Of a DNA stretch of 64,000 nucleotides, positions 3,749-64,000 are shown one piece after another. Source of the stretch: Terriglobia bacterium (GTDB taxonomy: Bacteria > Acidobacteriota > UBA6911). The notes beneath the pieces were generated by a model. That model made no database searches and had not been told where the DNA came from. It worked only from the letters and a program-made list of their open reading frames with translations. Every line of letters begins with the position of its first letter. Position 1 is the first letter of the stretch. The translations under genes were made by a program, and so were the position numbers. The stretch lies in assembly GCA_963824985.1 (NCBI GenBank), contig CAWGRQ010000042.1, positions 9,764 through 73,763 of the forward strand, in the 5' to 3' direction.

Positions 3749-6159
3749 TCAGACTGAACGGAGAAGGGCTATCCCATGGCCGCGCGGGGTCAGCGCAGAT
3801 TCAGCCGGTCGAAAAGCCACACCTTGACCCAGTCGAGGCAGGCGAAGTAAACGATTCCAGCGCATGCCACGCCTAAGAAAAATGACGCGCGGATCGCCGG
3901 CATGAGAATGCCGCCGAGCGCAAGAATTGCGGCTGACGCCAAGCCAAACACGCGAGCTGCCTACGAGAAAACGGCTGGGCCGCGACTGCCAGAAGTGCCC
4001 CCGCTCCCGCAGGAGATAGACGCCGGCCTGCGAGCTGAGGATCAAAGTCGCAAACATCAAGGTTTGAAGATGCGGCATGTCCAGGCGGAGCACATTGATA
4101 GCCGTACAGGAAGACACCGAGTGAGAAGACCAGCTTGCAAGCCGGCGAGGACGGTGGCGGCCAAAAGAATGCCGCGGGTGTTCCATCGGTTCGGGCGCCG
4201 TGAGTACTGCCATCCGGTCGGTTGAGAGGGACATCGTAAGGAAGTCATTGAGGAAAAGGAACAGCACCATCAGCAGCGGCGTGATCGGCTTCGTGCCTGG
4301 TTACCAGAAATCCGATTACCAACAGCGCCATGATCTCGATCTTCTTGATCAGCATGTTGAGGGTGTAGGTGATGATGCGCTGGAATACAAGCCGGCTCGT
4401 TTCGATCGCGGGCACCACACCGCCCAGTCCCGGGCGGGTCAACACCATGGCTGCGGCGGCTTTCGCCACGTCGGTCGCGTTGGCTACCGCGATCCCCGCT
4501 TCGGCCTGACGCAGCGCAGGGGCATCGTTGACTCCGTCCCCGCTCATCCCAACCACCTCGCCACGACGCTGGAAAGCCCCGGACCAGCCGGAATTTGTCT
4601 TCGGGAAACACGCCGGCGAACACACCGCAGTCGAGCGCGTCTCCGCACAGGTCGCCGTGCGAGCTTTTCGGGCGAACAAACGTTGCCTGAAATCCCCACC
4701 TGTTCGGCCACACTGCGTGCCGTGATGGCATTGTCGCCGGTGACCATGACGATGCGGACGCCCGCGTCGCGGATCGCACTCACGACGGATTTCGAATCCT
4801 CGCGCACGGCGTCCTCAAGCCCCAGCAGACCGACAAGGCGCATTTGGCCCGCCGTTCCTTCGGCCACCCCAAGCACACGTTGCCCGCGTCCGACGATGAT
4901 TTCAGCCTGAGGTTGCCAGACCGTGTCCGCGGCGCCGGTCAGTTTCGCGACAACTGCGGGCGCACCTTTCATGAAACGGCGAGAGCCTTCTTTGATCACG
5001 ATACACAGCCTCAGCGCGCTTGGTGGCCGGGTCGAAAGGCTTGAACTCAATTCGCTCCATTTCGCCGTCCTGCCAGCCGCGGTCGGTGGCGGCCTTGATG
5101 ATGGCGCCATCCACGGGATCCTGACCGGCCGGGTCGCTGGCCAACGCCGCGGCACGCAGGAGATCCTCTTCGGATGCGCCAGGGGCGGCCCAGAGGGCGC
5201 TTACCGTGGCCTGGTTGCGAGTCAGGGTTCCAGTTTTGTCGCTGCACAACACGGTCATGGAGGCGATGTCGTGCAGGGCGCTCAGGCGTGTGATGAGGAC
5301 ACCGTGTTTGGAAAGTTCCACCGAGCCCAGCGCTGCCGCGAGCGTGAAGGTGGCGGGCAACGCGACTGGAATGGAGGCGAGCAAAATGGTCAGCAACAAC
5401 GGCAGAATGAAGCCGAGGGACATGCCGACGTGGTGGGCGTAGCCGATCACGATCACGACCATCGCCGCGTTTACGACGAAGAGGTTTTTGACTACACCCA
5501 CAATCTCGTGCTCCTGCCGGTTGGCCGAGCCTGCAGTACGAACGAGTTCGGCGGTCTTCCCGAAGAAAGTGCGTGCGCCCGTGGCGGCAACTTCACCCGT
5601 GGCCTCGCCGCCGCGCACCATGGACCCCGCGTAGGCCGTGCTTGCCGGACTCGACGGAAGCGGCAGCGGATTCGCCCGTGAGCGCCGATTGGTCCACGAG
5701 CAACGATCCGTCCTCCAGCTTGACGTCCGCCGGCACGATGGTGCCCTGTCGCAGATGAATGACATCGCCCGGCACCAGGTCCTCGGCCGGCAACGTGGTC
5801 CACACACCGTCGCGCCGAACGCGGGCCAGCACACTCGCAGTTGTTGACGCAGGAGCGCCAGTGCCTTTTGCGCGCGGCCTTCCTGCAGCAGGCTCAGCGT
5901 CAGCATTCAAAACGAGGAGTCCGCCGATCACGGCTGCCTCCACCCTCTCTCCGAGAAAGAGCTGGATGATGATCGTGGCTTCCAGCAGCCAGGGGATGGG
6001 CGCCCAGAACCGCTTGACGAAGGCCTTCAGCGGGTGGGCCTTTTCCTCCACGACGGCATTAGGGCCGTATTGCTTGAGCCGCGCCTGAGCTTCGGCAGTA
6101 GTCAGGCCCTGCTGGTTAGGAGATCGGACGATACTCGAAGCCGGGTTTTGCTCTGACAT
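3749..6159 (-). pseudogene. P-type ATPase (plasma-membrane H+/cation-efflux, P3-like) broken by multiple frame changes
   Basis: Homologous blocks lie in different frames. N-terminus: GLTTAEAQARLKQYGPN. Then LLQEGRAQKALALL, RVRRDGVWTTLPAEDLVPGDV...SALTGES, CSDKTGTLT (phosphorylation motif), VMVTGDNAITA, GDGVNDAPAL, and the C-terminal TM region. ORF-track pieces end at 6159, 5906, 5155, 4679 and 4270 in three frames, and the frame toggles within pieces. Confidence 0.8.
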
Positions 6160-46327: not shown

Positions 46328-47112
46328 AGCGACGTGGACCGAAATGAGCTGGCCGCACACGGAGAGAATGGCGGGCTTTGGGATTGGAATCTGACATCCA
46401 GTTGGGTTCATTTTTCGCCCCGGTGGATCTCGATGGTGGGTTGCGAGGACCACGAGGTCGGGACCAAACCCGAAGAGTGGTTCCAGAGAATTCATCCCGA
46501 GGACCTGGAACAAGCACAGCGCGACATCGACGCCCACCTGGCAGGGAACTCCCGACAATTTGAAATTCACCACCGGCTGCTCCACAAGGACGGGACATAC
46601 CGTTGGATGTCCTGCCACGGCGTGATTGAGCGGAATGAAAACGGGCAGGCGGTCCGAATCGCAGGCTCCCACTCGGATATCACCGGGGAGAAGGTCGACG
46701 ATGCGCTGACCGGACTTCCAAACCGCCTGTTGCTGATGGACCGCCTGACGCGCTCCATTGCGCGTGCCAAACGGCGCGCTGACCACATTTTCGCCTTGCC
46801 GAGAGAACCGGGCTGATTGTGCCCTGGGCCGATGGGTTTTGCATGAGGCCTGCCGGCAGCTCAAGTCCTGGCAGGAGCGCATGCTGGCCCCGAACGACCT
46901 CTGGGTTTCTGTGAATATATCCGGCCCACAATTCGCTCAGTCCTCCCTGGTTGAACAGATTCGCGAGGTTTTGCATGACATCCAGCTGGCGCCGTATTGC
47001 CTGATGCTGGAGCTCACGGAAGGCGTGGTGATGCAAAATCCGGAAGCCGCCAGCAGTCAGCTCATGCAACTGCGTGTCATGGGAGTGCAAATCGGACTCG
47101 ATGGTTTCTCTA
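46328..47112 (+). pseudogene. PAS-GGDEF-EAL signalling protein remnant (internal deletion, frameshift, 3' truncation)
   Basis: A PAS block (GLWDWNL...FSPRWISMVG...YRWMSCHGV) runs into the GGDEF start (LTGLPNRLLLMDRL...RRADH). It then jumps directly to EAL blocks (LAERTGLIVP, LGRWVLHEACRQL, LELTE, IGLDGF) in other frames. Confidence 0.75.
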
Positions 47113-47146
47113 TCCATGACTTCTTTGCCTTTGTGCGGCAGGTGGA

Positions 47147-47881
47147 CATGATGTCGATGATGTGGCCCGGCTGACGGCGCAGTTCGCCGCGGCGCTCGAT
47201 GCCGGCCGGCCAGTGCATGATGATGGGAGTAGCGATGCCTCCCTCATGCGTCCAGTGCTTGAAGAGCCGGAACGGCGTGTTGGAGACGTTGGCCCACGGA
47301 TACCCGTAGCTCTGATAGGTGTCGGCGGGGCCGGGCATCACGCCGGGATCGTTGAAGAACCGCACGGGTTTTCCGTCCCGGGTGGTTTTGCGGGCCACCC
47401 GCTCCTTGCCCTCGAGGAGGTAGTTTCCCCAGCTCGGGGTCAACTCCTCGTGGCAGCCCCCGTTGTCTGAAAGGAAGAAGACGAGGGTGTTTTCGCGCGC
47501 TCCCGTCTTTTCGAGCGCGGCGAGGATCCGGCCGATGCCCTGATCGAGATGGTCGATCTGGGCCGCATAGACTTCCATGCGACGGAGCTGCCAGGCCTTC
47601 TCGGGGGCGTTCTCCCATGCGGGTACGTTGGCGTCCCGCGGGCTCAGCCGCCATACCTCGGGAACGATTCCCATTTCGATCATGCGGCGATGGCGTTCCG
47701 AACGCAGAACATCCCACCCCTGGTCGAAACGGCCGCGATAGCGGGCGATGTCCTCCTCGAGGGCGTGAAGAGGCCAGTGAGGTGCGGTGAAGGCGGCATA
47801 CAGGAAGAAGGGCTTGTCGGGCTTGTCGCGGCGATGGTCGTGGATGTAGCTGACCGCATGGTCGGCAATTGCGTCGCTCAC
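47147..47881 (-). pseudogene. Arylsulfatase fragment lacking the N-terminal catalytic (CxPxR) region and the C-terminus
   Basis: KPFFLYAAFTAPHWPLHA, LVFFLSDNGG, HEGGIATPIIMHWP and GHIIDIM blocks. A stop codon lies immediately upstream of the first aligned residue. Confidence 0.75.
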
Positions 47882-47998: not shown

Positions 47999-49057
47999 AT
48001 GACAAAGCCGTTGAGTTCCATCCTCATCAAGCCAGCGGGGCCGGACTGCAACATGGACTGCACTTACTGTTTCTATCGCAAGAAGGCTGATCTATTCCCG
48101 GACGATCCGACTCATCGGATGACGGATGAGATCCTGGAAGAGACGGTGAAACAGGCCATGGAGCAGGCCGGTGCCTCCATCTCCTTCGGCTGGCAGGGAG
48201 GCGAGCCCACCCTTATGGGACTGGAGTTCTTCCGGAAGGCCGTTTCGTATCAGCAGCGCTACGGCCGCGGCCAGACGGTCGGGAACGGGCTTCAAACCAA
48301 CGGAATCCTTCTTGACCGGGAATGGGCCGCCTTTCTCCGTGAATACAACTTCCTGGTCGGCCTATCGCTGGACGGACCGGAGCATGTCCATGACCGCTAC
48401 CGTCTCGATTGCGGGGACAAGGGCACTTGGGCGCACGTCGTCAACCGGGCTGCACTGCTCCTCGATGCCGGCGTGGCCGTCAACGCCCTCGTCGTCGTCA
48501 ACGACCATGCCGTGCGCTTTCCGGATGAGATCTACAACTACCACAAAGAAATCGGCCTGACCCATCTGCAGTTCATTCCGTGCCTGGAGCCCGATCCCCG
48601 GCTGCCGGATGCGCGGGCTTCCTTCTCAACCCCCGTTCAGGAGTACGGGCGGTTTCTGGCCAGGGTGTTCGATCTGTGGCTGGCGGATTTCCGGGGCGGG
48701 AAACCGGCCACCTACATCCGTTTTTTCGATTCCGTGTTCTACTCCTATGTCGGACTCACTCCGCCGGACTGCACCCTGCTCCCCGAGTGCGGGGTCTACG
48801 TCGTGGTCGAACATAACGGAGACGTGTATTCATGCGATTTTTTCGTCGAGCCGCAATGGAGATTGGGGAACGTCCTTGAAGGCAGGCTCGCCGGCATGCT
48901 GAACTCGGAACGGCAGGATTCATTCGGCAGGCTCAAGTCCTCGCTGGCCGCGGACTGCCTGCAGTGTCGCTGGTTGTCTTACTGCCGGGGGGGCTGTCCG
49001 AAAGACCGCAGGTTCAATGCCAGGGATCCGAAACTCGATCATTTCTGCACATCCTAA
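47999..49057 (+). CDS. Anaerobic sulfatase-maturating enzyme-like radical SAM/SPASM protein; in-frame TAA at 49055 precedes a 60-codon tail ending at 49240
   Basis: CNMDCTYC (CxxxCxxC), GGEPTL, and SPASM cysteines (CDFF..., CLQCRWLSYCRGGCPKDR). The same frame continues after the TAA as [12 protein letters not shown]...[18 protein letters not shown]. Confidence 0.8.
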   Translation: MTKPLSSILIKPAGPDCNMDCTYCFYRKKADLFPDDPTHRMTDEILEETVKQAMEQAGASISFGWQGGEPTLMGLEFFRKAVSYQQRYGRGQTVGNGLQTNGILLDREWAAFLREYNFLVGLSLDGPEHVHDRYRLDCGDKGTWAHVVNRAALLLDAGVAVNALVVVNDHAVRFPDEIYNYHKEIGLTHLQFIPCLEPDPRLPDARASFSTPVQEYGRFLARVFDLWLADFRGGKPATYIRFFDSVFYSYVGLTPPDCTLLPECGVYVVVEHNGDVYSCDFFVEPQWRLGNVLEGRLAGMLNSERQDSFGRLKSSLAADCLQCRWLSYCRGGCPKDRRFNARDPKLDHFCTS

Positions 49058-52574: not shown

Positions 52575-54690
52575 TCAGTGGCAGGGGAGCAGGGCTTTCG
52601 AGGCCGGGCGCTTCCGTGACACGAGATAGTAGAGCACCGGCATGGCCACCAGGGCGAGCACGAGCGTCGACAGCAGGCCCCCCACGATTACCGTTGCCAT
52701 GGGGCGCTGAATATCGGAACCGATCCCGGTCGCCGTTGCGGCCGGGATCATGCCGAGGAGAGCGACCAGAATAAGCAGGAAGTTGGGGGCCAGCCGGGCT
52801 CGTGCGGCCCGAAGAGTGGCGTCCTTCACGGGTATTTCCGATTGAGCGCGGAGCCGGTTGACCTCAGCAATGAAGAGAACCCCGGTCATGATGGCGACAC
52901 CGAAGACCGATATGAAGCCGACGCCGGCTGACACGCTCAGAGGGATGTCGCGCGCCAGGAGCGCCAGGATTCCGCCTACCAAAGAAAAGGGCACGTTTAA
53001 GAGCACCAGGAATGCATCGAGGGCGGATTCGAATGCGAAAAACAGCAGTCCGAACATCAACACAATGGTAAGCGGGATGATGATCGCGAAGCGGTGACGC
53101 GCGCGCGCCAGGTTTTCGAACTGCCCGCCCCACTGGATATGATAACCCGCCGGCAGCTGCACCTCATCCGCCAGGCTCCGTTGGGCTTCTGCCACAAAGC
53201 TCCCCTGATCACGTCCGCGAATATTAGTGCGCACGCTGATCTGTCGCCGATTCTCGCGCCGGGTAATGATGCTTGCCCCGTCCGTCACAGAAATCGCCGC
53301 GAGCTGCGCCAGGGGCAACCGCCCGCCTTCCGGCGTCATGACCAGGAGGTTGCGGATTGACGAGAGATCGCTGCGCGCTTCGGGGACATAGCGCACGGTG
53401 ATTTCAAACCGGCGGTCGCCTTCGAACATCGTGGAGACGGCCTGTCCGCCGATCGCCAGTTCGATCACCTGTTGCACATCGGCGATATTCAAACCATAAC
53501 GGGCTACCGCCTGGCGATCGATTTCGATCCGCAGTTGCGCCTGATCGGCATCCTGTTCAATAGAGCTGTCGGCTGCGCCGCGGATGTTCTGCACGAGGTT
53601 GAGGGTCTTGGCCGCGAGGGCGCGCAGCACGGACAACTCCGGACCGGTGAAAATTACGGCCAGATCGGCCGAAGAGCCGGTTACAGCTTCCGTTACCATG
53701 TCGATGATCGGCTGGGTAAAATTCAGCTTGATCCCGGGCAGATCTTTCCGGAGCCGGGCCTCCATTTCATTGACAAGCATGGGTTTCGTCCGGCCTCGCT
53801 CCCAGGTCCGGTACGGGGTGAGCGCGACCAGTAACTCGGTGCGGTTCGGACCGAACGGTTCCGTATTCGAGTCCTGGCGCCCGGTTTGCGAGCTGACAAG
53901 ATCCACTTCAGGCGTCAGCCGGATGAACTCCCGGATGCGGGTGGCAACTCGCGCCGATTCCTCGATCGCGGTTCCTGGAGGCAGAGTGGCCTTGATCCAG
54001 ATCATGCCCTCGTCCAATTGGGGCAGGAATTCGGTGCCGAGGCCTCGTCCGGCCATGAAGGCGCCGATGGTCAGAGCGACAGTGACTGCGGCGACCGCGT
54101 AAGGCCTGCGCAATAGCCGGCGCAAGAGGCGATCATAAGGGAGTATGCTCCAGGCAATCAGCCGGTTGGGCCGGGAGCGAAAGCCCTTGCCAAAAAAGAG
54201 AGTGGCGAGCGACGGGACCAGACTGGTCGTCAGCAGCAGTGAACCAAGCAGGGCATAACAGATCGTATATGCCATGGGAGTGAACAGGCGCCTTTCGACG
54301 CTTTCCAGGCCGAACAGGGGAATGTAGGCCGAGATGATGATCATAAGGGATACAACCACCGGCAGCTCCATGTCACAGGCGGCGGCTTTGACTGTGTCGA
54401 CTGGGTTTTCGACCTGCCCATTCGTCTGCCGGTCCGAAAGCGATCGGAGGATGTTGACCACCATCACCAGCGTCCCGTCCACGATGATGCCGAAGTCAAG
54501 TGCCCCCAGGCTGAATAAATTGGCGGGAATGCCCGAAACGTACATGCAGAGAAAGGCGAAGAGCAGGGAAAGCGGAATGGTCAAGGCCGTCAGGAGTGCC
54601 GCGCGCGCGGAGCCAAGAAACAGGAGTAAAACCCCTATGACAATGACCAGCCCCTCGAAGCGCGCGTCTTCGACCGGCCCTCCGAAGCTT
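52575..54690 (-). pseudogene. RND efflux pump, CusA/CzcA (heavy-metal efflux) type, lacking about 340 N-terminal codons
   Basis: The frame opens at a TAG near 54690 with ...FEGLVIVIGVLLLFLGSARAALLTALTIPLSLLFAF, and the protein is colinear with CusA/CzcA from there to the C-terminus. No start region, membrane-fusion gene or outer-membrane-factor gene is adjacent. Confidence 0.75.
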
Positions 54691-54948
54691 TTGGGCTAGT
54701 AATTCGCCGATCCGCCGCCGTTGCCGTCGAGGCGCATCGAGCCGTCCCTGTGATATGTTGCCACCGGACATCGGGGATTATTCACCGGTAGACTCTCGTA
54801 GTTGACCCCCAGGCGATACCGGTGCGCGTCCCATAGGAGACGATGCGGATGTCTGGAAAGTTTGAGGAGTCACAAATTCGAGCGATTCCATGGAAACTCG
54901 GGGGCACGGATCTGCCGTGCCCCCGGGAGGGAAAAGGGGAAACGGGCC

Positions 54949-55335
54949 CTAGAAGAGCCAGTTAAGGCGCAGGATAAAGCCCAGATTTTTCCCCGTCATA
55001 TCCACGAGATAGGGCTGTTTGTCCTGGTAGTTTTGATAGGTCATGGCATATTCCATGATGAATTGCTGGCGCAGCATTTGGCGCACACCCGCCTCGGGGT
55101 ACCACCAGCGCACCCGGAGCCGAGAATAGTTCTCCAGGTCTGATAAGGCCACGTAGTCGAATCCGGGAGGAGTTCCGCGTACTTTTGTTGGATCCAGTGT
55201 TAGACCGGAAAGAGCCGCCGAGGCTTCCGTGCAGGTCGTCTGGCTATAGGCAGTGATTTTATCCGTAAACCGGAGATTCAAGGCCGCCCAGGCGGTGCGT
55301 TCGAGGTTGTTGTTCTCGTAGATTAGACACGCGTG
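54949..55335 (-). pseudogene. C-terminal fragment (about 125 aa) of an outer-membrane beta-barrel protein
   Basis: Alternating beta-strand pattern ending ...GFILRLNWLF with a terminal Phe. The frame is closed by a TAG at 55336. Confidence 0.45.
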
Positions 55336-55382
55336 CTATCATCGAGCTGAAAGCTCCTTGGCATGAATCTGGTGAGATCAAG

Positions 55383-55847
55383 ATGAAATATACATTCCTA
55401 AGAGTGCTTTCATTGATTGGATGCCTGGTGATTGCGGTTCCGCCCGTTCAAGGAAGAGATCAAACCATTGACGAGACTGCCCGGCGGATCGAAGGCAAGC
55501 TGATGGCTCCCTGCTGTTGGGCTGAGCCTGTTTCGCAGCATCTTTCCCCAGTGGCAGAGGAAATGAGACGGGAGATCCGCAAGATGCTGGGCGAGGGCAG
55601 GTCGGAGCAGGAAATTCTCGACACCTATGTGGCCAGATATGGAGTGCGGATCCTGACCAGCCCGCCTGCCCGCGGTTTCAACCTCGTCCTTTACATCCTG
55701 CCATGGTTGTTTGGAATTACCGCCATTCTGGGGCTTTCACTGATCATCAGGCGCTGGCTGGGGTCGAGGCCGGCTGCAGCAACATCCCCTCCCTTCAATG
55801 CGCGTGATGAAGAGAGGATCGAGCAGGAACTGCGCGATTTGGAGTAG
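55383..55847 (+). CDS. ccmH: Cytochrome c-type biogenesis protein CcmH/NrfF-like
   Basis: Signal peptide, LMAPCCWAEPVSQHLSPVAEEMRREIRKMLGEGRSEQEILDTYVARYGVRILTSPP, then a C-terminal TM helix: the overall CcmH layout. Confidence 0.65.
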   Translation: MKYTFLRVLSLIGCLVIAVPPVQGRDQTIDETARRIEGKLMAPCCWAEPVSQHLSPVAEEMRREIRKMLGEGRSEQEILDTYVARYGVRILTSPPARGFNLVLYILPWLFGITAILGLSLIIRRWLGSRPAAATSPPFNARDEERIEQELRDLE

Positions 55848-56047
55848 CAGGCAGACCCCCGAAGGGTTTCGGTTTTCCATCAGCCGGCAGGCAATTGTTG
55901 CGGATGCTCGCGGCTCATGACATTCGGGTTCGCAAACTGGTGCCTGCGCGCGTTCGGAGGCGGCCGGGTGTTCGTATGGATAGAATTGGCGTGGAAGTCG
56001 CCTGACGCTGATTTCAGCCCGGGTTCCACCAGACCGAGGAGGAGAGC

Positions 56048-56494
56048 ATGGGTGAGAGGATACGCATCGGAATCATCATATGTCACAGGTATCACACCTG
56101 CGCGGGGGGCAAATGCTTCCGTGCCCTGCGCAATCGCGAAGGAGCATTTGAAGTGTATCGTGATCAGGAGATCGAACTCGTCGGGTATACGACTTGCGCG
56201 GGCTGTCCGGGCGGCAACATCGAATATGCGCCCGAAGAAATGCAAAAGAACGGCGCAGAGGTCGTGCACCTGGCTACAGGGCTGGTGGTCGGGTACCCAC
56301 CCTGTCCCTACATCAGTTTCTTCAAGGAGTTCATTGAGTCGCGGTACGGATTGAAGACGGTAATCGGCACACACCCGATTCCGGAGAAATACTACCGCAT
56401 CCATTCCGATCTTGGGACCTGGGCGGATCCTGTATGGAATGAAATCCTGAAGCCAACGCTAACGGACGAGAAAACCCGCCTCGACTATAATTAG
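56048..56494 (+). CDS. CGGC domain protein
   Basis: IICHRYHTCAGGKCF...GYTTCAGCPGGNI...VHLATGLVVGYPPCPY, a Cys pattern typical of the CGGC domain. GAGGAGGAG RBS. Confidence 0.75.
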   Translation: MGERIRIGIIICHRYHTCAGGKCFRALRNREGAFEVYRDQEIELVGYTTCAGCPGGNIEYAPEEMQKNGAEVVHLATGLVVGYPPCPYISFFKEFIESRYGLKTVIGTHPIPEKYYRIHSDLGTWADPVWNEILKPTLTDEKTRLDYN

Positions 56495-56687
56495 AGGATG
56501 GGTCGATCACCGCCACCTGTTTCATGACGCGGATCTGGGGCCCGGCCAAGCCTACACCCTCGTGAAAATACATGGTCTCAAACAGGTCTGCCACGAGCTG
56601 GTGCAGGCCGGAATTGTCGAACTCCGTGACCCGATCGCAGGGTGTCTCCAGGCAACGGTCCGGACAGAGAATGACGTCGCGAATCAT
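56495..56687 (-). pseudogene. def: 5' stub (about 64 codons) of peptide deformylase
   Basis: MIRDVILCPDRCLETPCDRVTEFDNSGLHQLVADLFETMYFHEGVGLAGPQIRVMKQVAVIDPS. The GxGLAAPQ motif is present; the EGCLS and HExxH motifs are absent. Homology ends where the convergent CGGC gene stops. Confidence 0.7.
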
Positions 56688-56776
56688 CAGTGCTGCCTCA
56701 CGGCGAGTTGACTGTCCACCCGGTCTTCAACAACAGTCCCGGTCACACGAGCACATCCTTGCGGCTGATCAGCCAT
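56687..56776 (-). CDS. 29-codon ORF translationally coupled (TGATG) to the def stub
   Basis: AAAGGAG RBS 5 nt before the ATG; MADQPQGCARVTGTVVEDRVDSQLAVRQH. May itself be a 5' remnant. Confidence 0.25.
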   Translation of the reverse strand: MADQPQGCARVTGTVVEDRVDSQLAVRQH

Positions 56777-56885
56777 CGTGACTCCTTTCTATATTCGGGG
56801 CACCGTCCGTGCCCGTTTTATCGCCGCGGCGGCATCGCATGCGGGGCGCCCGCCTCCGCCGAAGCCGTGTCCAGACAGGTGGCGG

Positions 56886-57254
56886 TCATTCCGCCGCGGT
56901 TTCGGCCTCGATTTTGGCAAGGCGCTTTTTGACGGAGTCGAGTTCCGATTGAAGGGCCTCGGCTTCGTTCTCGAGCGCCTGTTTCTCCAGGTTGGGATCG
57001 GGCTTCTGATAAGGCGCGGCATACCGGCCGAAACGCATCCACCCCGGCTTCCCGGTTGCGTGGAACATGTGTCGCCCTCCACGGCCACCCCCACCACGGC
57101 CGCCAAATCCCCGGTCCCGTCCGGAACCCATCCCGAATCCTCTGTCCGGAGCGGGATTCGCATACCCGGGCATCTCAAAACCCGCGCAGTATCCGGCTGC
57201 GCGACCGCTTCTGGGAAACATTCCCCTCGGACCTGTTCTGTCTCCTGCTGGCAT
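56886..57254 (-). CDS. DUF5320 family protein
   Basis: MPAGDRTGPRGMFPRSGRAAGYCAG... Gly/Arg-rich middle and a C-terminal coiled coil (EKQALENEAEALQSELDSVKKRLAKIE), which matches the DUF5320 layout. Confidence 0.75.
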   Translation of the reverse strand: MPAGDRTGPRGMFPRSGRAAGYCAGFEMPGYANPAPDRGFGMGSGRDRGFGGRGGGGRGGRHMFHATGKPGWMRFGRYAAPYQKPDPNLEKQALENEAEALQSELDSVKKRLAKIEAETAAE

Positions 57255-57279
57255 AGTGATAGCCTCCTTTCGGTTTTTA

Positions 57280-57887
57280 TTATTCCCTTGTCATTGCAGT
57301 ACCGCACTTCGGGCACTGCTTCTGTACGCAGGGCACTCCCTGTTCATGCGATTCACGATGCCCGCATTTCGGACACAGGCAAGCGCCGGCAGCGCCCCCC
57401 GCAAGGGGACCGCCCATGCGACCTCGACCCTGTCCGCCTTGACCTCGGCTCCGTCCGCCTTGACCCATTCCGCCACGTTTTCTTCCATTCATCAGGAATT
57501 CTTCCTCGTTCACGCCGCGCATTCCCCGTCGCCGGTCTCGACCGCGCCCGCAGCAACCGGGCATGGCAAAGGTGTCGTGCTCCAATTTGTCACCGAGCCA
57601 GGCCTGAATGACCTCGCTGAGGTCGCCGGCCACGAACGGGATCACCTCGATGCCGTGAGCGGCGACCATCTCGTGCAAAGGCCTGGAAATCGCGCCGCAA
57701 ACCAGCGTGCCGACATCAAGCTCCGCGAGGCGGATCAGCCTTCTGAACCGGCAGGTCGTCCGCCAGGACTCCTTTGTTTCGTTGCAATGATTCGTCCCGA
57801 CTCGGCTTCGACGACATGAATCTGCCGGGCGATGTCGATAACCGGCGCGATTCGATTGTCCCAATATGCAAAAGCCGTCTTCATCAT
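57280..57887 (-). pseudogene. NifX/NifB-type (dinitrogenase FeMo-cofactor-binding fold) protein with RGG-rich linker and C-terminal Cys4 zinc-ribbon; needs two frame changes
   Basis: MMKTAFAYWDNRIAPVIDIARQIHVVEAESGRIIATKQ (frame 1), LADDLPVQKA (frame 2), LIRLAELDVGTLVCGAISRPLHEMVAAHGIEVIPFVAGDLSEVIQAWL...CLCPKCGH...CPKCGTAM (frame 3). Confidence 0.6.
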
Positions 57888-58030
57888 CCAAGGCCCCGGC
57901 CGTCATTCACGTATGGCATAAAAGCAATCGCGGCACCAATCGCATCCGCGCCTCACAAAATACAATCATCCCTTGTAATTAAATGAGTTAAGGTGAATTT
58001 CGAGGAGAGGGCGGCAAGCCAAAGAGTAGC

Positions 58031-58047
58031 GTTATAGCTACTATAAC
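58031..58047. promoter_or_regulatory. Perfect 7-3-7 palindrome GTTATAG-cta-CTATAAC, candidate operator
   Basis: Located in the AT-richer part of the divergent intergenic region, 5 nt upstream of a TATGAT -10-like hexamer (58052-58057). Confidence 0.35.
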
Positions 58048-58179
58048 TGTATATGATAGGCGCAATCGCGCTACTACTTCCGTTCGTGACGGGAACGGCC
58101 GTCCGGCTCGGGCAGGGGGATGCCCAGTTTCTTTATTCTGCGGAGACGACAAACAACTTGACTCTCGAAGCCGCGCAAT

Positions 58180-58214
58180 CTTAGTATTACGATTTCAATG
58201 GACGTAATACTGAG
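58180..58214 (+). promoter_or_regulatory. 12-bp AT-rich stem-loop immediately upstream of the TonB-receptor RBS
   Basis: cttagtattacg-N11-cgtaatactgag (one G-U pair). GGGAGGA RBS at 58218-58224, ATG at 58231. Confidence 0.5.
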
Positions 58215-58230
58215 ATCGGGAGGATAGGTC

Positions 58231-60246
58231 ATGAAGCGCCTGGATCTTCTTCTTGTGATATTCAGCCTCGGCGCGCTGCCCGCCTGGGCCGAGGAAATCA
58301 GGATTCGCGTGGTGGACCCGCAGGAAAAGGTCATTGTCGGCGCCGCCGTTACGATTCGCAGCCAGGGCAAGCTCATCTCAAAGCAGACCGATGAAAAAGG
58401 CGAGTTGGTTGCACAAGTCGTGATGCCGGCAGACATCCGCGTGACCGCAGCCGGTTTTGATCCTTGCGATCTGAAGCTGGATGTCGTACCCGGCAGGGAG
58501 CTGACCGTGCGGCTGAGGCCGGCGACGGTGCACACCATCATTGAGGTGGTCGTACGTGAGGAGGGTGCGGCAACGGGCACGACCGAACGGACGGCCCTCG
58601 AGATCGACCGCGGCGGCGCGCGCACCGTCTTCGATGCCGTGGACAAGCTTGTCCCCTGCGCCTATGTCACCCGGCGCGGCGTCATGGGCTACGGGCTCAA
58701 CAGCCCATCCGGCGCGGTATCGATTCGTGGCATGGGGGGTTCCCCCAACACTCAGGTGCTCGTCGTAGTCGATGGGCGGCCCGACTACATGGGATTGATG
58801 GGTCATCCGATTCCGGACTTCTATACACTGTCCGATGTGGGAAGTTTGTCTGTTACCCAGGGGCCCGCTTCCGTTCGTTATGGTAGCGGAGCGATGGGCG
58901 GGGCCATAGAGATAAAACCGGCGCCGGTCAGGGAAGGCACCCTTACCGAATTCACGACCAGTTTCGGGTCTTTCAATACGGGCCAGCACCGACTCTCTCA
59001 CGGCTCCCGAATCGGGCGCGGCTTCTATCATCTCACGGCAGGAATCGAGCATACTTCCGGGGACCGCCCCAACTCGGCTTTCCACAACCAGCATGGCACT
59101 CTCGCGCTCGGATACGACCTGTCGTCGATCTGGAGAATTTCACTCCAGGGCCGCTACGGCCACTTCAACGTCGAGGATCCCGGGCCGGTCAGCGCGCTCA
59201 CGTCTGGCCGCTTTGCCAATGTCGGTCGCGGCGGGTTCAACGTAGCGCTGGAAAACTCGGGCGCGCGCACATGGGGTTCGGCTAGCTTCTACTCCAGTTA
59301 TGGTCATCACATGCTCTGGGACGGATTCCGTTCTGTAGATGCAACCCAGGGTTTCCGGCTCGAACAAAATTATCTGATCACGCCAAGGCTCACGGTCGAG
59401 GCCGGGACGGATGTCATTCGATATGGCGGACGGGCCCGGAACATCAAAACCTCTCTGGATTACGGTGAACACCACGTATCAGAAGGGGGCGTTTTTTCGC
59501 GGGCGCACTTCGCCGTTTCATCTGCGCTGATTCTGAACGCAGGCTTTCGTTACGATCACAACTCGCTTTACGGCGGAGTGGCTGTCCCGGAGTTCGGCGC
59601 GATCTACAAGTTCGGCGAAAAGTATTCGCTGTCGACCGCCATGAGCAAAGGTTTTCGGAACCCTACCATCCGGGAACTCTACCTTTTTCCGGCGCCCAAT
59701 CCCGCTCTGAAGCCCGAGCGCCTGTGGAACTACCAGGCTACGTTCCAGATGCGTCCCACCCAGTCCCTTCTGGCTTGGATCACCGGCTATTACGCCGATG
59801 CGAGTAATTTGATCATTACGACCGGCAGATTTCCGAATCTGAAACTGGAGAACGGAGGCCAGGCCCTCAATCGTGGGATGGAAATCAATGGCCGCTGGCA
59901 GCCACTGCGCAGATTGAGTCTCACCTCCGGGTACGCATACCTCCGTTCTACGAATCTCGCGCCCTATGTCCCGGCCCACAAGCTGAACTACTCGCTGGAT
60001 CTCGACGCCGGGCGGATCTTCCTGAACCTCGGTGGAACCTCGGTGGGCCGCACCTGGGCCGACGCGGCCAGAACGCAGCCACTGGGGGAATATACCGTTA
60101 TCACATTAAAGTGCACGGCGCCGTTGGGAAGAAAAGTGAGTGCTTTCATCACGCTGGATAACCTTTTCAATCGCAGTTACCAGGTTGTTGCGGGCTATCC
60201 AATGCCCGGCATCAACGCGATCGGTGGATTCAACTTCAGGTTCTGA
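58231..60246 (+). CDS. TonB-dependent outer-membrane receptor with N-terminal carboxypeptidase-regulatory-like domain
   Basis: Signal peptide; IRIRVVDPQEKVIVGAAVTIRS...; plug-like region (VSIRGMGGSPNTQVLVVVDGRP); beta-barrel ending ...GGFNFRF. Confidence 0.8.
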   Translation: MKRLDLLLVIFSLGALPAWAEEIRIRVVDPQEKVIVGAAVTIRSQGKLISKQTDEKGELVAQVVMPADIRVTAAGFDPCDLKLDVVPGRELTVRLRPATVHTIIEVVVREEGAATGTTERTALEIDRGGARTVFDAVDKLVPCAYVTRRGVMGYGLNSPSGAVSIRGMGGSPNTQVLVVVDGRPDYMGLMGHPIPDFYTLSDVGSLSVTQGPASVRYGSGAMGGAIEIKPAPVREGTLTEFTTSFGSFNTGQHRLSHGSRIGRGFYHLTAGIEHTSGDRPNSAFHNQHGTLALGYDLSSIWRISLQGRYGHFNVEDPGPVSALTSGRFANVGRGGFNVALENSGARTWGSASFYSSYGHHMLWDGFRSVDATQGFRLEQNYLITPRLTVEAGTDVIRYGGRARNIKTSLDYGEHHVSEGGVFSRAHFAVSSALILNAGFRYDHNSLYGGVAVPEFGAIYKFGEKYSLSTAMSKGFRNPTIRELYLFPAPNPALKPERLWNYQATFQMRPTQSLLAWITGYYADASNLIITTGRFPNLKLENGGQALNRGMEINGRWQPLRRLSLTSGYAYLRSTNLAPYVPAHKLNYSLDLDAGRIFLNLGGTSVGRTWADAARTQPLGEYTVITLKCTAPLGRKVSAFITLDNLFNRSYQVVAGYPMPGINAIGGFNFRF

Positions 60247-60254
60247 CCATTACT

Positions 60255-60788
60255 ATGAAAGCGGAAGCACTGCGGTCCATGGTCATGAGCGCCGTCATGG
60301 CGGCATTCGGCATCACGCTGCCGATGGTTTTTCACATGGCGGGCCTGGGAAGCAAATTCCTTCCCATGCTGCTCCCGATCCTGCTCAACGGTTTTCTCTC
60401 GCTTCTTCCCTGGGCGGCGCTGACCGGCGCGCTCGTGCCTGTGGCAAGCGGATTGTTGACCGGCATGCCGCCGTTCTATCCTCCGATCGCCCTGGTGATG
60501 TCGATCGAAGGCGCGCTCATGGCCGCGGCCGCAGCCGTGATCTATCGTCTCAGCAAGCCCCGGATCTGGCCCGCCCTGGTTGTCGCTGTGGGCTTGGATC
60601 GCATGGTCTCGGCCGGATTGATGTGGCTGATGGCTGGAAATTTTGGCCTGCCACCCGCAGTGATATCGACCGCGAGCCTCATTCAGGGATTTCCGGGTGT
60701 GGCATTGCAGCTTGTGGTTGTCCCGCTGGTCGTGCGCGGAATAAGAGCAAGGAAAGGAATACTCCTTCCAGATGAAGACAGATCCTAG
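60255..60788 (+). CDS. Small polytopic membrane protein, putative ECF-transporter S (substrate-capture) component of unknown specificity
   Basis: 177 aa with 5-6 hydrophobic helices. Assignment rests on position directly between the receptor and the T/A genes; no family signature recognised. Confidence 0.45.
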   Translation: MKAEALRSMVMSAVMAAFGITLPMVFHMAGLGSKFLPMLLPILLNGFLSLLPWAALTGALVPVASGLLTGMPPFYPPIALVMSIEGALMAAAAAVIYRLSKPRIWPALVVAVGLDRMVSAGLMWLMAGNFGLPPAVISTASLIQGFPGVALQLVVVPLVVRGIRARKGILLPDEDRS

Positions 60789-61377
60789 ACGTCCTTATTT
60801 CAACAGCCTTGCCACCGAATGGGATTGCATCCCCGCCGCACCGAATTCTGCCGGCAGGATCTCGACATTTTTGAAGCGGTCCCATAGAGCCGGAGTTCGA
60901 CGCGTCCTCGATGTCGGCTGCGGCACCGGCATTCTCGTGCCTGAATTGCTGAACCTCTATGGCTCTGCAACCCGCCTGGTGGAATTTGATCTGGCGGAAG
61001 ATATGCTTAGGGTCAATTCGACCAAGTTCCCGAGCACCAGCATCGGCCGTGTCTGTGCAGATGCGCAGGCCATGCCCTTTTCTGACGCATGCTTTGATCT
61101 GGCTGTTTGCTTCAGCGTGCTTCCTCACATGCCCGACAAGTCTGCCGCCCTGCGCCAGATAATTCGGATTCTGCGTCCTGGTGGTGTTTTTTGTGTGGGG
61201 CACCTGATGGGCAGCCGCGAATTGAATGCGTTTCACGGCAGCCTCGAAGGCCCTGTGAAGGTCGATTTTCTTCCCCCTGCGGCAGTCCTGGCTCAAATGT
61301 TGAAGGACCTGGGGGCGGTGGCGATCGAGGCAGAGGAGAATTCCGATTGGTATTTCGTGCGTGCAGAGAAATCCTGA
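60772..61377 (+). CDS. Class I SAM-dependent methyltransferase
   Basis: VLDVGCGTGIL (motif I), DLAVCFSVLPHM, LRPGGVF. Overlaps the preceding gene by 17 nt. Confidence 0.8.
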   Translation: MKTDPRRPYFNSLATEWDCIPAAPNSAGRISTFLKRSHRAGVRRVLDVGCGTGILVPELLNLYGSATRLVEFDLAEDMLRVNSTKFPSTSIGRVCADAQAMPFSDACFDLAVCFSVLPHMPDKSAALRQIIRILRPGGVFCVGHLMGSRELNAFHGSLEGPVKVDFLPPAAVLAQMLKDLGAVAIEAEENSDWYFVRAEKS

Positions 61378-61378
61378 A

Positions 61379-61930
61379 ATGAAGCCCATATCCTTCATGC
61401 CTGCGCTGCTGGTACTGTCGGCTGCCGTTGCGGTGGCGTTCATGCGCGATATTGGGTGGGTGATCGCTGCGCTGCCTGTAAGCCTTGTGCTCAACATCGG
61501 GTCATGGCGAAGCCTTTCCAAAGCGATGCGCGCGATGCTACCGGTCGCGCTGTTTGTCCTGACCCTGATCTTGCTTCAGTGGCTCTATCGCCGGCCCGAG
61601 CCTATGGTTGCCGCAAAGACCCTGGCCGTCTTCTGGCTCACCACGGCGGCATTCCGTTGGGTGCCTTGGTCTGGGCTTGCAGGCGCGATCCGCCCGGAAT
61701 CGCGGGCCTCGGCCTTTATCTTCTATTTACTGTTCGTCCGTCATTTTGCATCGATCCTGGTTGTGGAAGCAGGCCGTCTGCTCCACGCGAGATCGCGCGC
61801 GGTCCCGCAGACTTGCGGCCACTGGGCTTTCCGGTCTCTCACGGCTGCGCTGGTCTCGTTGTTTGGGCGCGCCGGGATCCGAGCCGAGCGCTTCTATGCG
61901 GCCCTTTTGTTGAAAGGACTTGTAGAGTGA
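61379..61930 (+). CDS. Short CbiQ/EcfT-like transmembrane (T) component
   Basis: 183 aa, hydrophobic. C-terminal EAGRLLHARSRAV and RAERFYAALLLKG resemble degenerate Ala-Arg-Gly coupling motifs. Start lies 2 nt after the methyltransferase stop. Confidence 0.5.
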   Translation: MKPISFMPALLVLSAAVAVAFMRDIGWVIAALPVSLVLNIGSWRSLSKAMRAMLPVALFVLTLILLQWLYRRPEPMVAAKTLAVFWLTTAAFRWVPWSGLAGAIRPESRASAFIFYLLFVRHFASILVVEAGRLLHARSRAVPQTCGHWAFRSLTAALVSLFGRAGIRAERFYAALLLKGLVE

Positions 61931-62620
61931 AGTCTGTCCTTGAGGTGGCAGGGTTGAATTTCAGCTTCGAGCGGAGCCGGCCGGTTCCTGCAAAACATCG
62001 ATTTCCGCGTACCGGAAGGCGAATACCTGGGGATCGTCGGCGGAAATGGAGCCGGAAAGAGCACACTCCTCTGGTGCCTTTTGGGATTGCTCAAAGCCAG
62101 CGGGTCTATCCGCTTTTTTGGGGAAGAAATCAGCAAGAGAGCACTGGAGCGGATTGCCATGGTTTTTCAGAATCCGGAGGACCAGCTGTTCATGCCCGCG
62201 CTCTTGGACGATGTGGCTCTTCCACTGGTCAATCGTGGTGTAGGGATAACCGAGGCGCGGCGCATGGCTCTGGATAAGCTGGATAAGCTCGGCCTAGGTG
62301 ATTTAGCGGGCCGTCCGGCAACCAGGCTGAGCATCGGCGAGCAGAAACGCGCCTCGATTGCCGCAGCCTTGAGCACGTCGCCGGAGCTTCTGCTGTTGGA
62401 TGAGCCCACGGCTGAACTGGATGGGCGGTCGGTGCGTCAGCTTGCTGGTTTATTGGCAAAGCTCGCCGTTACAACGATAGTGACCAGCCATCACCTCGAT
62501 TTCCTGCGCATGATCACTTCCCGCACGCTTGTGCTTAGCAAGGGTAGAATCATCGCGGACGGCCCCATGCCGGATATCCTCGGTAATCAGACCCTGCTCC
62601 AGGCTGCGGACCTGATATAA
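61927..62620 (+). CDS. ECF/CbiO-type ABC ATPase (A component) with one frame change near 61987
   Basis: GTGA overlap with the T gene. VKSVLEVAGLNFSFERSRPV (frame 1), then LQNIDFRVPEGEYLGIVGGNGAGKST (Walker A), VFQNPEDQLF (ECF-type Q-loop), LSIGEQKR, LLLLDEPTAELD (frame 2). The extra c is in ggttcctg. Confidence 0.75.
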
Positions 62621-62668
62621 AGGAGGAAAGCGAATAGACATCTGAGATGGTCTGAAATGCATGAGAAA

Positions 62669-62698
62669 AAAGGGAAAGCCCTTTATCGCTTTTCATTT
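62669..62698 (+). terminator. Weak terminator candidate after the ATPase gene
   Basis: aaaggg-aaag-cccttt followed by atcgcttttcattt. Confidence 0.3.
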
Positions 62699-62807
62699 GG
62701 CATGATCGAGGTCGCCGCAGGAGGCACGGATCGCGGCCGTCCCACCCGCATGGTCTCTGTGGACGGGACACCCGCGATCCGTCGGTTGAAGGCTTGCCCC
62801 CAGGCGT

Positions 62808-63340
62808 TCAGACCACGTTCTGAGCCTCGAGGGAACTGAGCTTGTCGTGAGCGTAGTTGAGCCGGGCCGTCAGACGGTGCGCGGCAGAGGCCTCGTGGTC
62901 CAGACGCAGCATGTAATAGCCAGTCCTCTGGCTTATCGGATAAACTCCCCCGAGACCTTCGAGCGGAGTGGCCTTGTAAGCAGGAGGGGCGTGGGTATCG
63001 GGATCGAGCCCGGTCCGGGCGATGGCGGAGCCGCGAATAGCGGCGCGGACGGCGGGATGGGAGGGTTGGCCGGCCGCGAGTGCCTGCTGTTGCGGCGTCA
63101 AGCCCAGAACCCCGGGATTCATGCCAATTCGGGTGAATCCGCTCTCCTGGCGTCGCAATTGTTCAAACGAGGCGAAAAAAAACGTGCGGTTGACCCGCAA
63201 TGGCCCCCCGAAGCCGCCGAGAGAATCAGCCAGAGCAACAGTGACAGGGGCCTGCTTACCGGATCAGCCACCCGCCCGCCGACGTTGCCCTCAGAAAAGA
63301 CCCGTAGGGCGACAAAGCCAAGCACGTTCGCGGATCGCAT
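62808..63340 (-). pseudogene. Internal fragment of a large TonB-dependent receptor-like protein
   Basis: RVNRTFFFASFEQLRRQES... and ...RLDHEASAAHRLTARLNYAHDKLS are typical barrel segments. No plug or C-terminus. The upstream part is in another frame. Confidence 0.5.
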
Positions 63341-63441
63341 GATCCTTCTCTCCGTTTCTTCTGATGGAGTGCTATTTACATCTTCATATACTTACACCTT
63401 GTGATGTGAGACAGCGGCAATGGCGATGCTGGTCTTGCCGG

Positions 63442-63837
63442 CTAATCCATGAGTACCACCTCAAATTCCGGGGGAGTGACGATATGCTTTTTGACCGTGC
63501 ACAGGTTGACGGTCTTGAGGACGGCCCCTTTGAGTTCTTCGGGAAAGTCCCGCGGACACGTGACCTCGATGCGAATCGGGGTGAACAGCTTCTTTTCGGG
63601 ATCGCGTTCCGCTTGAAGGCGAACCCCCAGGCCCTCGGTGTTCAGCTTCCGGGCATTGCAGAATTCCAGTGCGTAGATCCCGACACAGGTGGCCATGGAC
63701 ACGAAAAACAGGTCGAACGGTTCGGGGGCTGATCCCTCACCGCCGTTCTTCACGGATTGGTCCGTCTGGACCGTGCGCCCGTCATAGTGCGCGTCGACCC
63801 GTTTTCCGCCGGGAAACGTAACGGTAATGCTCTTCAT
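63442..63837 (-). CDS. OsmC/Ohr family protein
   Basis: APEPFDLFFVSMATCVGIYAL and LCTVKK blocks (two conserved Cys). ATG 63837 is preceded by GGAGGG. Confidence 0.75.
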   Translation of the reverse strand: MKSITVTFPGGKRVDAHYDGRTVQTDQSVKNGGEGSAPEPFDLFFVSMATCVGIYALEFCNARKLNTEGLGVRLQAERDPEKKLFTPIRIEVTCPRDFPEELKGAVLKTVNLCTVKKHIVTPPEFEVVLMD

Positions 63838-64000
63838 CGATACACCCTCCAACAGATCATAGTAATGGAACGATCTTTCTTTGTGCGCGCAATCGTCAAG
63901 CGCATTCTCGCACGCCTCCCGCCATTGCGCAGCGCTGTCGCTGAGATTGGGCCAGCCGGAGGATCTGACGGCGAAGGATTTCCCAAGCAGCCGCGAGCCT

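Follow-up and report, generated by a model that had tools for sequence, protein, structure and literature searches.

The targets known or predicted for the repressor NikR are mostly nickel uptake systems, TonB-dependent receptors among them (PMC545781; PMC11247825), and in some bacteria NikR is also predicted to repress nickel-independent isozymes (PMC545781). NikR-regulated receptors include FrpB4 and FecA3 of H. pylori and the predicted cases Bll6948 and Daro_3944 (PMC11247825). Transport joined to modification of the cargo has been described for BtuM, an S-type protein in which decyanation is performed by a Cys of the S protein itself (PMC6072759). Here we analyse an operon in a 64,000-nucleotide stretch of a Terriglobia bacterium genome (assembly GCA_963824985.1, contig CAWGRQ010000042.1, positions 9,764 to 73,763), hereafter the window, that encodes a TonB-dependent receptor, the S component, T component and ATPase (A) of an energy-coupling factor (ECF) importer, and an S-adenosylmethionine (SAM)-dependent methyltransferase (MT) placed between S and T. 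We read it, with a probability of roughly 0.55, as a NikR-repressed system that takes up nickel, probably in chelated form, and methylates the cargo in the cytoplasm. It is a conserved and real variant of the ECF uptake system and apparently undescribed: no description of the receptor-S-MT-T-A module was found in the literature searched, where a prior mention is not fully excludable, and the database labels of its proteins are generic ('hypothetical protein', 'UbiE', 'iron complex receptor').

The receptor-S-MT-T-A operon is conserved across phyla

The five genes lie on the plus strand and are tightly packed (Table 1), as an earlier note made from the letters of the window had described. An 8-nt gap separates the receptor from S, S and MT overlap by 17 nt, and T and the ATPase share a 4-nt GTGA overlap, all in agreement with the open reading frame (ORF) coordinates; the gap between MT and T, previously put at 2 nt, is 1 nt (base 61378). 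The operon holds no extra small membrane genes and no gene for an extracytoplasmic solute-binding protein, and no such protein recurs among the 80 loci described below.

A pattern scan with one genome per species revealed a relative of the S protein in 283 species, and 80 loci were fetched. Gene order was compared over these 80 species-level loci by tblastn with the five window proteins and, independently, by clustering every ORF. S (77/80 loci), MT (74/80), ATPase (67/80), receptor (65/80) and T (54 or more of 80) make up the five largest clusters. The order S-MT-T-A recurs in about 70 of the 80 loci, with receptor orthologues upstream of S in 65; one locus seemingly devoid of MT (L004) proved to be a gene-calling error, the MT gene being present. 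Since the same gene order recurs across phyla, the packing of the operon exceeds chance, and the chance juxtaposition that the earlier note had held out as a possible refutation is contradicted by relatives that keep the full receptor-S-MT-T-A order. The flanking genes are unconserved, so the module is self-contained. Most carriers are Acidobacteriota (Bryobacterales, Solibacteraceae), joined by at least seven further phyla: carriers were found in Aminicenantes, Sumerlaeota, Spirochaetota/Leptospira, Fibrobacterota, Kiritimatiellia, Verrucomicrobiota, Marinimicrobia and one deltaproteobacterium. An exhaustive profile search with S, sister clades included, returned 805 representatives (50% identity, E<=1e-10).

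Table 1 Features of the operon, its control region and its surroundings, in window coordinates
Feature	Position	Strand	Basis
TonB-dependent receptor, 671 aa	58231-60246	+	ORF table; Pfam
S component, 177 aa	60255-60788	+	ORF table; AlphaFold/Foldseek
Class I SAM-dependent methyltransferase (MT), 201 aa	60772-61377	+	ORF table; Pfam
T component, 183 aa	ATG 61379-61930 (stop 61928-61930)	+	ORF table; profile-profile comparison
CbiO/EcfA-like ATP-binding cassette (ABC) ATPase, frameshifted, 230 aa once repaired	GTG 61927-62620	+	ORF table; NCBIfam
Putative NikR-type operator, perfect inverted repeat GTATTAC-N13-GTAATAC	58184-58210	.	Pattern scan and published consensus
Predicted sigma-70-like promoter, TTGACT, 18-nt spacer, TAGTAT	58158-58187	+	Consensus scan
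Junction of missing 552-nt segment (nikR in relatives)	58141/58142	.	blastn and MAFFT against L087, L088
Sulfatase, truncated (positions 147-294 of 301)	47057-47881	-	
Radical-SAM/SPASM maturase, adjoining the truncated sulfatase	47999-49057		
AcrB-type pump, truncated (profile positions 364-1020 of 1021)	52575-54584	-	
CcmH	55383-55847		
CGGC-domain protein	56048-56494		
DUF5320	56886-57254	-	
NifX-like (Nitro_FeMo-Co), C-terminal tail with paired Cys-x2-Cys motifs (by eye)	57280-57906	-	
OMP_b-brl_4 fragment of a large protein, 129 aa, directly after the operon	62808-63200	-	
OsmC-like protein	63442-63852	-	Best NCBIfam match TIGR03549 (OsmC domain of OsmC/YcaO fusions), E 1e-22, far below cut-off

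A NikR-type operator precedes the operon

Between the upstream gene and the receptor lies a perfect inverted repeat that overlaps the -10 hexamer of the predicted promoter; 20 nt separate its end from the receptor ATG. The NikR signal defined by Rodionov et al. 2004 reads GTGTTAC-[N13/14]-GTAACAC, with variants such as the reversed GTAACAC-[N13]-GTGTTAC and GTaTTAC-[N13]-GTAACAC (PMC545781); our repeat matches this published box, and the operon is thus a putative NikR target. The general form of the palindrome, GTNNNAC-N13-GTNNNAC, occurs as a single copy in the window, at this very position. With complementary arms required, 51 sites were counted in the 918 kb of loci and window taken together, against about 2 expected from a base-frequency estimate, and almost all of them stand directly 5' of the operon's first gene or of an opposite-strand receptor. 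The position is kept in about 50 loci, with GTAGCAC-N13-GTGCTAC predominating in Acidobacteriota and GTGTTAC-N13-GTAACAC in Aminicenantes and others. In several non-acidobacterial phyla, the search returned no GTNNNAC-type box 5' of the operon or of nikR, except for one site in L079. The predicted promoter is a 9/12 consensus match of a kind about equally frequent in shuffled sequence; it is the only promoter-like site 5' of the receptor, and is plausible because it lies directly upstream of the operon and overlaps the operator.

The sole other recurrent neighbour of the module is nikR itself, present in 13/80 loci from at least six phyla. The protein, of about 140 aa, has the RHH_1 and NikR_C domains (Pfam; NikR_C E 1.7e-30), and the copy in L087 clears the NCBIfam NikR equivalog with 177 bits against a cut-off of 105. 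Its His/His/His/Cys positions, which we take to be those of the high-affinity nickel site of E. coli NikR, are invariant in 14 copies. The operator and the loss of nikR from the window, which are the main functional clues, had both escaped the earlier note.

A search with all Rfam families at E<=1 over window positions 54000-64000 returned no riboswitch or other RNA family, and none matches the leader region. At gathering thresholds, 12 diverse loci yielded no cobalamin riboswitch upstream of the operon; their only matches were tRNAs and two cobalamin riboswitches in L071, a deltaproteobacterial metagenome-assembled genome. The latter are arranged in tandem on the minus strand (3763-3934 and 4457-4642; 115.7 and 79.7 bits), divergent from the S-MT-T-A genes, and appear to serve another TonB-dependent receptor. 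A separate observation concerns L012, in which an identical NikR-type palindrome occurs twice (1440-1466 and 3916-3942, about 2.5 kb apart), each time before a receptor-like stretch, which suggests a tandem duplication of receptor gene and operator.

The receptor and a divergent S component

The receptor has an N-terminal CarboxypepD_reg domain (PF13620), a plug (PF07715, E 9e-13) and a barrel (PF00593, E 3e-34) of the 22-strand type, and reaches the cut-off of no curated NCBIfam subfamily. The S protein matches Pfam ECF_trnsprt at 26.5 bits, below the cut-off of 30.7; no NCBIfam model fits it, and its sequence profile has no meaningful match in the PDB, in keeping with the previous remark that it carries no signature of a known specificity class. 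Its AlphaFold model (mean predicted local distance difference test score, pLDDT, 86.6) comprises six helices. When this model was compared with the PDB by Foldseek, the top 19 matches were all S components, either RibU, ThiT, FolT and BioY or the S chains of whole ECF complexes, with template-modelling (TM) scores of 0.39-0.70, mostly 0.56-0.70, and probabilities of 0.75-1.0 (1.00 for the top ten). This bears out its candidacy as an S component. Neither CbiM nor NikM appears among the top 50 fold matches, nor does the protein match PF01891. As fold matches are confined to the RibU/ThiT/FolT/BioY type, the protein is best regarded as a divergent S component for a small organic ligand.

The S family is recognised by the signatures FH-x2-GLGSKFLPM and TGMPP-x-YPP, and 78 sequences share the invariant residues H27, S65, T69-G-M71-P-P, Y75, P76-P77, E85, R116 and P147-G148. 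From the usual topology of S components, we infer that these residues would face the periplasmic side. As to the ligand, an invariant Arg is more easily reconciled with an anionic group than with a bare cation.

Other partners are also joined to S. In a sister clade (P0334, P0378; L092 6001-6987, L093), S is fused to TM1506/DUF1893 instead of MT, and the fusion genes adjoin a gene for a major facilitator superfamily transporter and an unannotated 206-aa gene. The S lineage, this suggests, has repeatedly recruited cytoplasmic partner domains. In P0370 (449 aa) and P0346 (579 aa), S is joined directly to an ABC ATPase domain.

A truncated T component and a CbiO-like ATPase

The window T protein has no match in Pfam or NCBIfam, and its only PDB match is a weak one to CbiQ (5x3x, E 0.44). 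It is short, with degenerate coupling motifs, as had been noted: the first reads HARS, and the second, RAERFYAALLLKG, contains LKG and is followed immediately by the end of the protein. Outside Acidobacteriota, T proteins of the module are 220-260 aa long, match PF02361 CbiQ and TIGR02454, and have the canonical motifs ALRLRG and AMELRGY. Profile-profile comparison (hhalign) of 26 short acidobacterial T proteins (134-206 aa) with 15 long syntenic ones matching Pfam CbiQ gave a probability of 97% and an E of 5e-11, establishing homology to CbiQ-type T components. The short form covers columns 18-206 of the 247 in the long profile and so is without the last transmembrane helix; the acidobacterial T is thus a lineage-specific C-terminal truncation of CbiQ.

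Once repaired (see below), the 230-aa ATPase contains MVFQNPEDQLF, the Q-loop that the earlier note had linked to CbiO/EcfA ATPases. Its best NCBIfam matches are ECF_ATPase_2, ECF_ATPase_1 and cbiO (E 1e-43 to 1e-40), none of which reaches its curated cut-off; one scores 146.5 bits where 330 are required.

The methyltransferase is tied to the S component

MT is a class I enzyme by Pfam (Methyltransf_11, E 8.5e-22, and Methyltransf_25), and its model (pLDDT 93) shows the generic class I fold, with more than 1000 class I fold matches. Across 76 sequences the SAM-binding residues D47-x-G49-x-G51, D73 and D109 are invariant, as are H119, H144, N152, H155 and D165. NCBIfam scores stay below the cut-offs for DVU_1556 (68.7 against 155 bits, the best), BioC (63.9 against 185) and UbiE (53 against 378). 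The top and only full-length sequence match in the PDB is to plant phosphoethanolamine N-methyltransferases (E 4e-18), a match that does not identify the substrate; since fold and profile searches return generic class I enzymes, no substrate is assignable from them.

MT always adjoins S and in some lineages is fused to it: several of the best 150 S-family representatives are 360-390 aa long, and the five that we checked (P0273, P0286, P0302, P0307 and P0347) are fusions of an N-terminal S and a C-terminal MT that carry the signatures of both families. Fused genes occur in the orders nikR - S::MT - CbiQ - ABC (L090), receptor - S::MT (L091), and NikR box (42-68) - receptor - DeoC-like aldolase gene - S::MT (L089). 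The C-terminus of a six-helix S component is cytoplasmic, which would place MT at the inner face of the transporter. The link between S and MT provides the strongest evidence that MT would act on what S imports. These fusion proteins lend weight to the suggestion of the earlier note that uptake may be coupled to a modification of what is imported. As a side observation, the gene between receptor and S::MT in L089 (2027-2746) is of the DeoC/LacD aldolase type and may encode an additional cargo-processing enzyme.

The window copy has lost nikR and has a frameshifted ATPase

The nearest relatives are represented by five contigs (L087, L088, L094, L095 and L097; MT 87-94% identical). All five have an intact ATPase gene of 230 aa and, in the interval between receptor and upstream gene, a divergent nikR. 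Window positions 56724-58141 align to L087 801-2219 and 58142-62637 to L087 2772-7258, and the L087 nikR gene (2243-2734; RHH_1 and NikR_C) lies inside the segment that is absent from the window. The arms of the operator are identical in the window and in L087/L088; the spacer differs at 4/13 bases.

Reading of the ATPase starts at 61927 in one frame, shifts at about 61984 and continues in the +1 frame up to 62620. Where L087 and L088, about 90% identical to the window, have CCGG-TCCTG, the window has CCGGTTCCTG. The single extra base formerly reported at about 61987 is thus confirmed as one extra T, either a mutation or an assembly error, which the alignment places at 61985/61986. None of the examined relatives has the frameshift, and since their ORF runs through this site uninterrupted, we rejected a programmed frameshift as an explanation. 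Metagenome contigs scanned for exact matches to the frameshift site and the promoter segment yielded no independent assembly of the same strain, and an exact look-up of the window T protein returned no record.

With nikR deleted and the ATPase frameshifted, the system in this genome looks disabled or deregulated. The locus may here be a pseudo-operon in decay that no longer functions, a possibility that we put at rather less than even, and the truncated genes nearby (AcrB-type pump, sulfatase and OMP fragment) fit such decay. However, all five frames are intact save for one extra T, the operator arms are intact, and single-base indels in contigs assembled from metagenomes can be errors. In the comparison with L094, the ratio of non-synonymous to synonymous substitution rates (dN/dS) is 0.12-0.23 in each of the five genes, the repaired ATPase, at 0.23, being similar to its neighbours. 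The five genes are under purifying selection, which leaves either a recent inactivation or an extra T introduced in assembly. Decay would moreover bear on this copy alone and not on the nature of the system.

A model for nickel uptake coupled to methylation, and its alternatives

Gene order, folds, homologies, operator, nikR linkage and S::MT fusions are observed; the cargo, the direction of transport and the methyl acceptor we infer as follows. At low nickel, apo-NikR would leave the operator and the operon would be transcribed. The TonB-dependent receptor would carry a nickel complex, a small chelate and not the bare ion, over the outer membrane, and S would capture it on the periplasmic side in a pocket formed by the invariant H27, M71, Y75, E85 and R116. 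S would then topple on the T scaffold, a truncated CbiQ, powered by a homodimer of the single CbiO-like ATPase. At the cytoplasmic face MT, beside or tethered to the C-terminus of S, would methylate the imported ligand; methylation would cut its affinity for nickel or block its return, resulting in metal release or metabolic trapping. A receptor and a vitamin-type importer combined with an enzyme under a nickel repressor imply that the substrate of the enzyme should be, or derive from, the transported ligand. More tentatively, the S-MT pair may represent an unrecognised mode of metal acquisition, in which a nickelophore is imported via receptor and ECF importer and methylated to release or trap its metal. 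Were this true, the route would be common among uncultured diderm phyla and would offer a handle on the natural nickel ligands of TonB-dependent receptors. Nickel biology has yet to establish which cargo such receptors transport and by what route the metal leaves its ligand once in the cell. The S-MT-T-A system is common in soil Acidobacteriota, and naming it rightly would improve the prediction of metal metabolism from metagenomes.

Several observations weigh against this nickel model. Nickel is deduced from the regulator alone, and since NikR is also predicted to repress nickel-independent isozymes (PMC545781), the cargo need not be nickel. The boxes were not found in Sumerlaeota, Fibrobacterota or Kiritimatiellia, and Sumerlaeota loci hold S-MT only, without T, ATPase or receptor. 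The receptor has no conserved His or Cys; S is not CbiM/NikM-like, nor does it display an invariant residue pattern proving metal binding. MT may instead modify a protein or an unrelated metabolite. As to the window itself, tblastn found no nikR in its 64 kb, and the broken ATPase means that this copy may not function.

In a first alternative, the system would be NikR-repressed and the cargo would not be nickel, being instead another metal (e.g. cobalt) or an organic cofactor or precursor needed in the absence of nickel enzymes, which MT would finish or trap. We regard this as unlikely. The likeness of S to the vitamin-type RibU, ThiT, FolT and BioY, not to CbiM/NikM, the invariant Arg in the predicted pocket, the predicted repression of isozymes by NikR (PMC545781) and the closeness of T and ATPase to the cobalt-type CbiQ/CbiO families all speak for such a cargo, whereas most NikR targets, known or predicted, serve nickel uptake, TonB-dependent receptors included (PMC545781; PMC11247825), and no vitamin riboswitch or biosynthetic neighbour recurs at the loci.

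Alternatively, MT might methylate a protein of the system or be merely co-regulated, the transporter carrying bare Ni2+. Homology gives MT no substrate, Foldseek and profile matches being generic class I and the best NCBIfam match, to the DVU_1556 family, falling below its cut-off. However, MT strictly keeps its place between S and T from phylum to phylum, translational overlaps link the genes and S::MT fusions recur, all of which favours a site of action at the cytoplasmic face of S; a bare cation is, in our view, hard to square with an invariant pocket Arg and the need for a TonB-dependent receptor, which makes this reading improbable.

Finally, of the cargo classes named in the earlier note, a metal chelate is favoured and a corrinoid disfavoured: an importer of corrinoid or cobalamin precursor like BtuB plus BtuM or CbrT, with MT modifying the corrinoid or its lower ligand, has the BtuM precedent for joining transport to cargo modification (PMC6072759), a weakly BtuB-like receptor (TIGR01779, E 1e-21, far below cut-off) and the two cobalamin riboswitches adjoining the operon in one locus (L071) on its side, and is nevertheless very improbable, because those riboswitches are on the other strand and apparently belong to another receptor, none occurs in the searched part of the window or upstream of the operon in the 12 diverse loci, the regulatory position is held by NikR boxes and nikR genes, and MT is of class I, not a corrin (class III) methylase.

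Surrounding genes

The truncated neighbours listed in Table 1 suggest gene decay, rearrangement or a chimeric assembly of the contig. Upstream of the operon, 55383-57906 is a gene cluster typical of anaerobes. Its NifX-like and DUF5320 genes are syntenic in L087 and L088 and not in L094, and so are probably outside the module. A cation-efflux (cation diffusion facilitator, CDF) protein fused to a NifX-like Nitro_FeMo-Co domain is encoded in L090 (1899-3194), near nikR and S::MT-CbiQ-ABC. With NifX-like genes thus by the operon in the window, in L087/L088 and in L090, the co-occurrence may not be accidental. Downstream, synteny with relatives stops at 62637, before the OsmC-like gene.

Comparison with known systems

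The architecture resembles that of the dedicated (group I) ECF transporters. As in NikMNQO and CbiMNQO, one operon combines a CbiQ-type T with one CbiO-like ATPase and encodes no periplasmic binding protein, and the system shares with NikMNQO the predicted control by NikR through a 7-N13-7 palindrome (PMC545781). It differs from both in its S component, which is not CbiM/NikM, has six helices instead of seven and is without the N-terminal metal-binding motif. NikN, NikK and NikL are all absent from the operon, a SAM methyltransferase and a TonB-dependent receptor are integral to it, and the acidobacterial T is without the C-terminal helix. Lacking the NikM/NikN feature by which the NikMNQO family is defined, the system falls outside that family.

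With FrpB4/FecA3, Bll6948 and Daro_3944 it has in common a TonB-dependent receptor under (here predicted) NikR control for nickel across the outer membrane; no operon of ECF importer and methyltransferase is described for those receptors. BtuB with BtuM offers the parallel of an S-type inner-membrane protein co-localised with a TonB-dependent receptor and of transport joined to cargo modification (PMC6072759), the latter proposed for the present system, and the Sumerlaeota loci, in which S-MT occurs without T or ATPase, are like BtuM in this respect. Unlike BtuB with BtuM, the present system has a separate or fused SAM enzyme and predicted control by NikR with no vitamin B12 riboswitch, and most of its members have their own T and ATPase.

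The vitamin-type group I ECF importers (BioMNY; RibU/ThiT/FolT) match it in the fold and size of S (TM mostly 0.56-0.70) and differ in regulation and in having no embedded enzyme, and S shows no sequence-level kinship to solved S components. If the proposed function holds, this would be, to our knowledge, the second S-component system after BtuM to couple import to modification of the cargo, and the first to do so with a separate or fused SAM enzyme.

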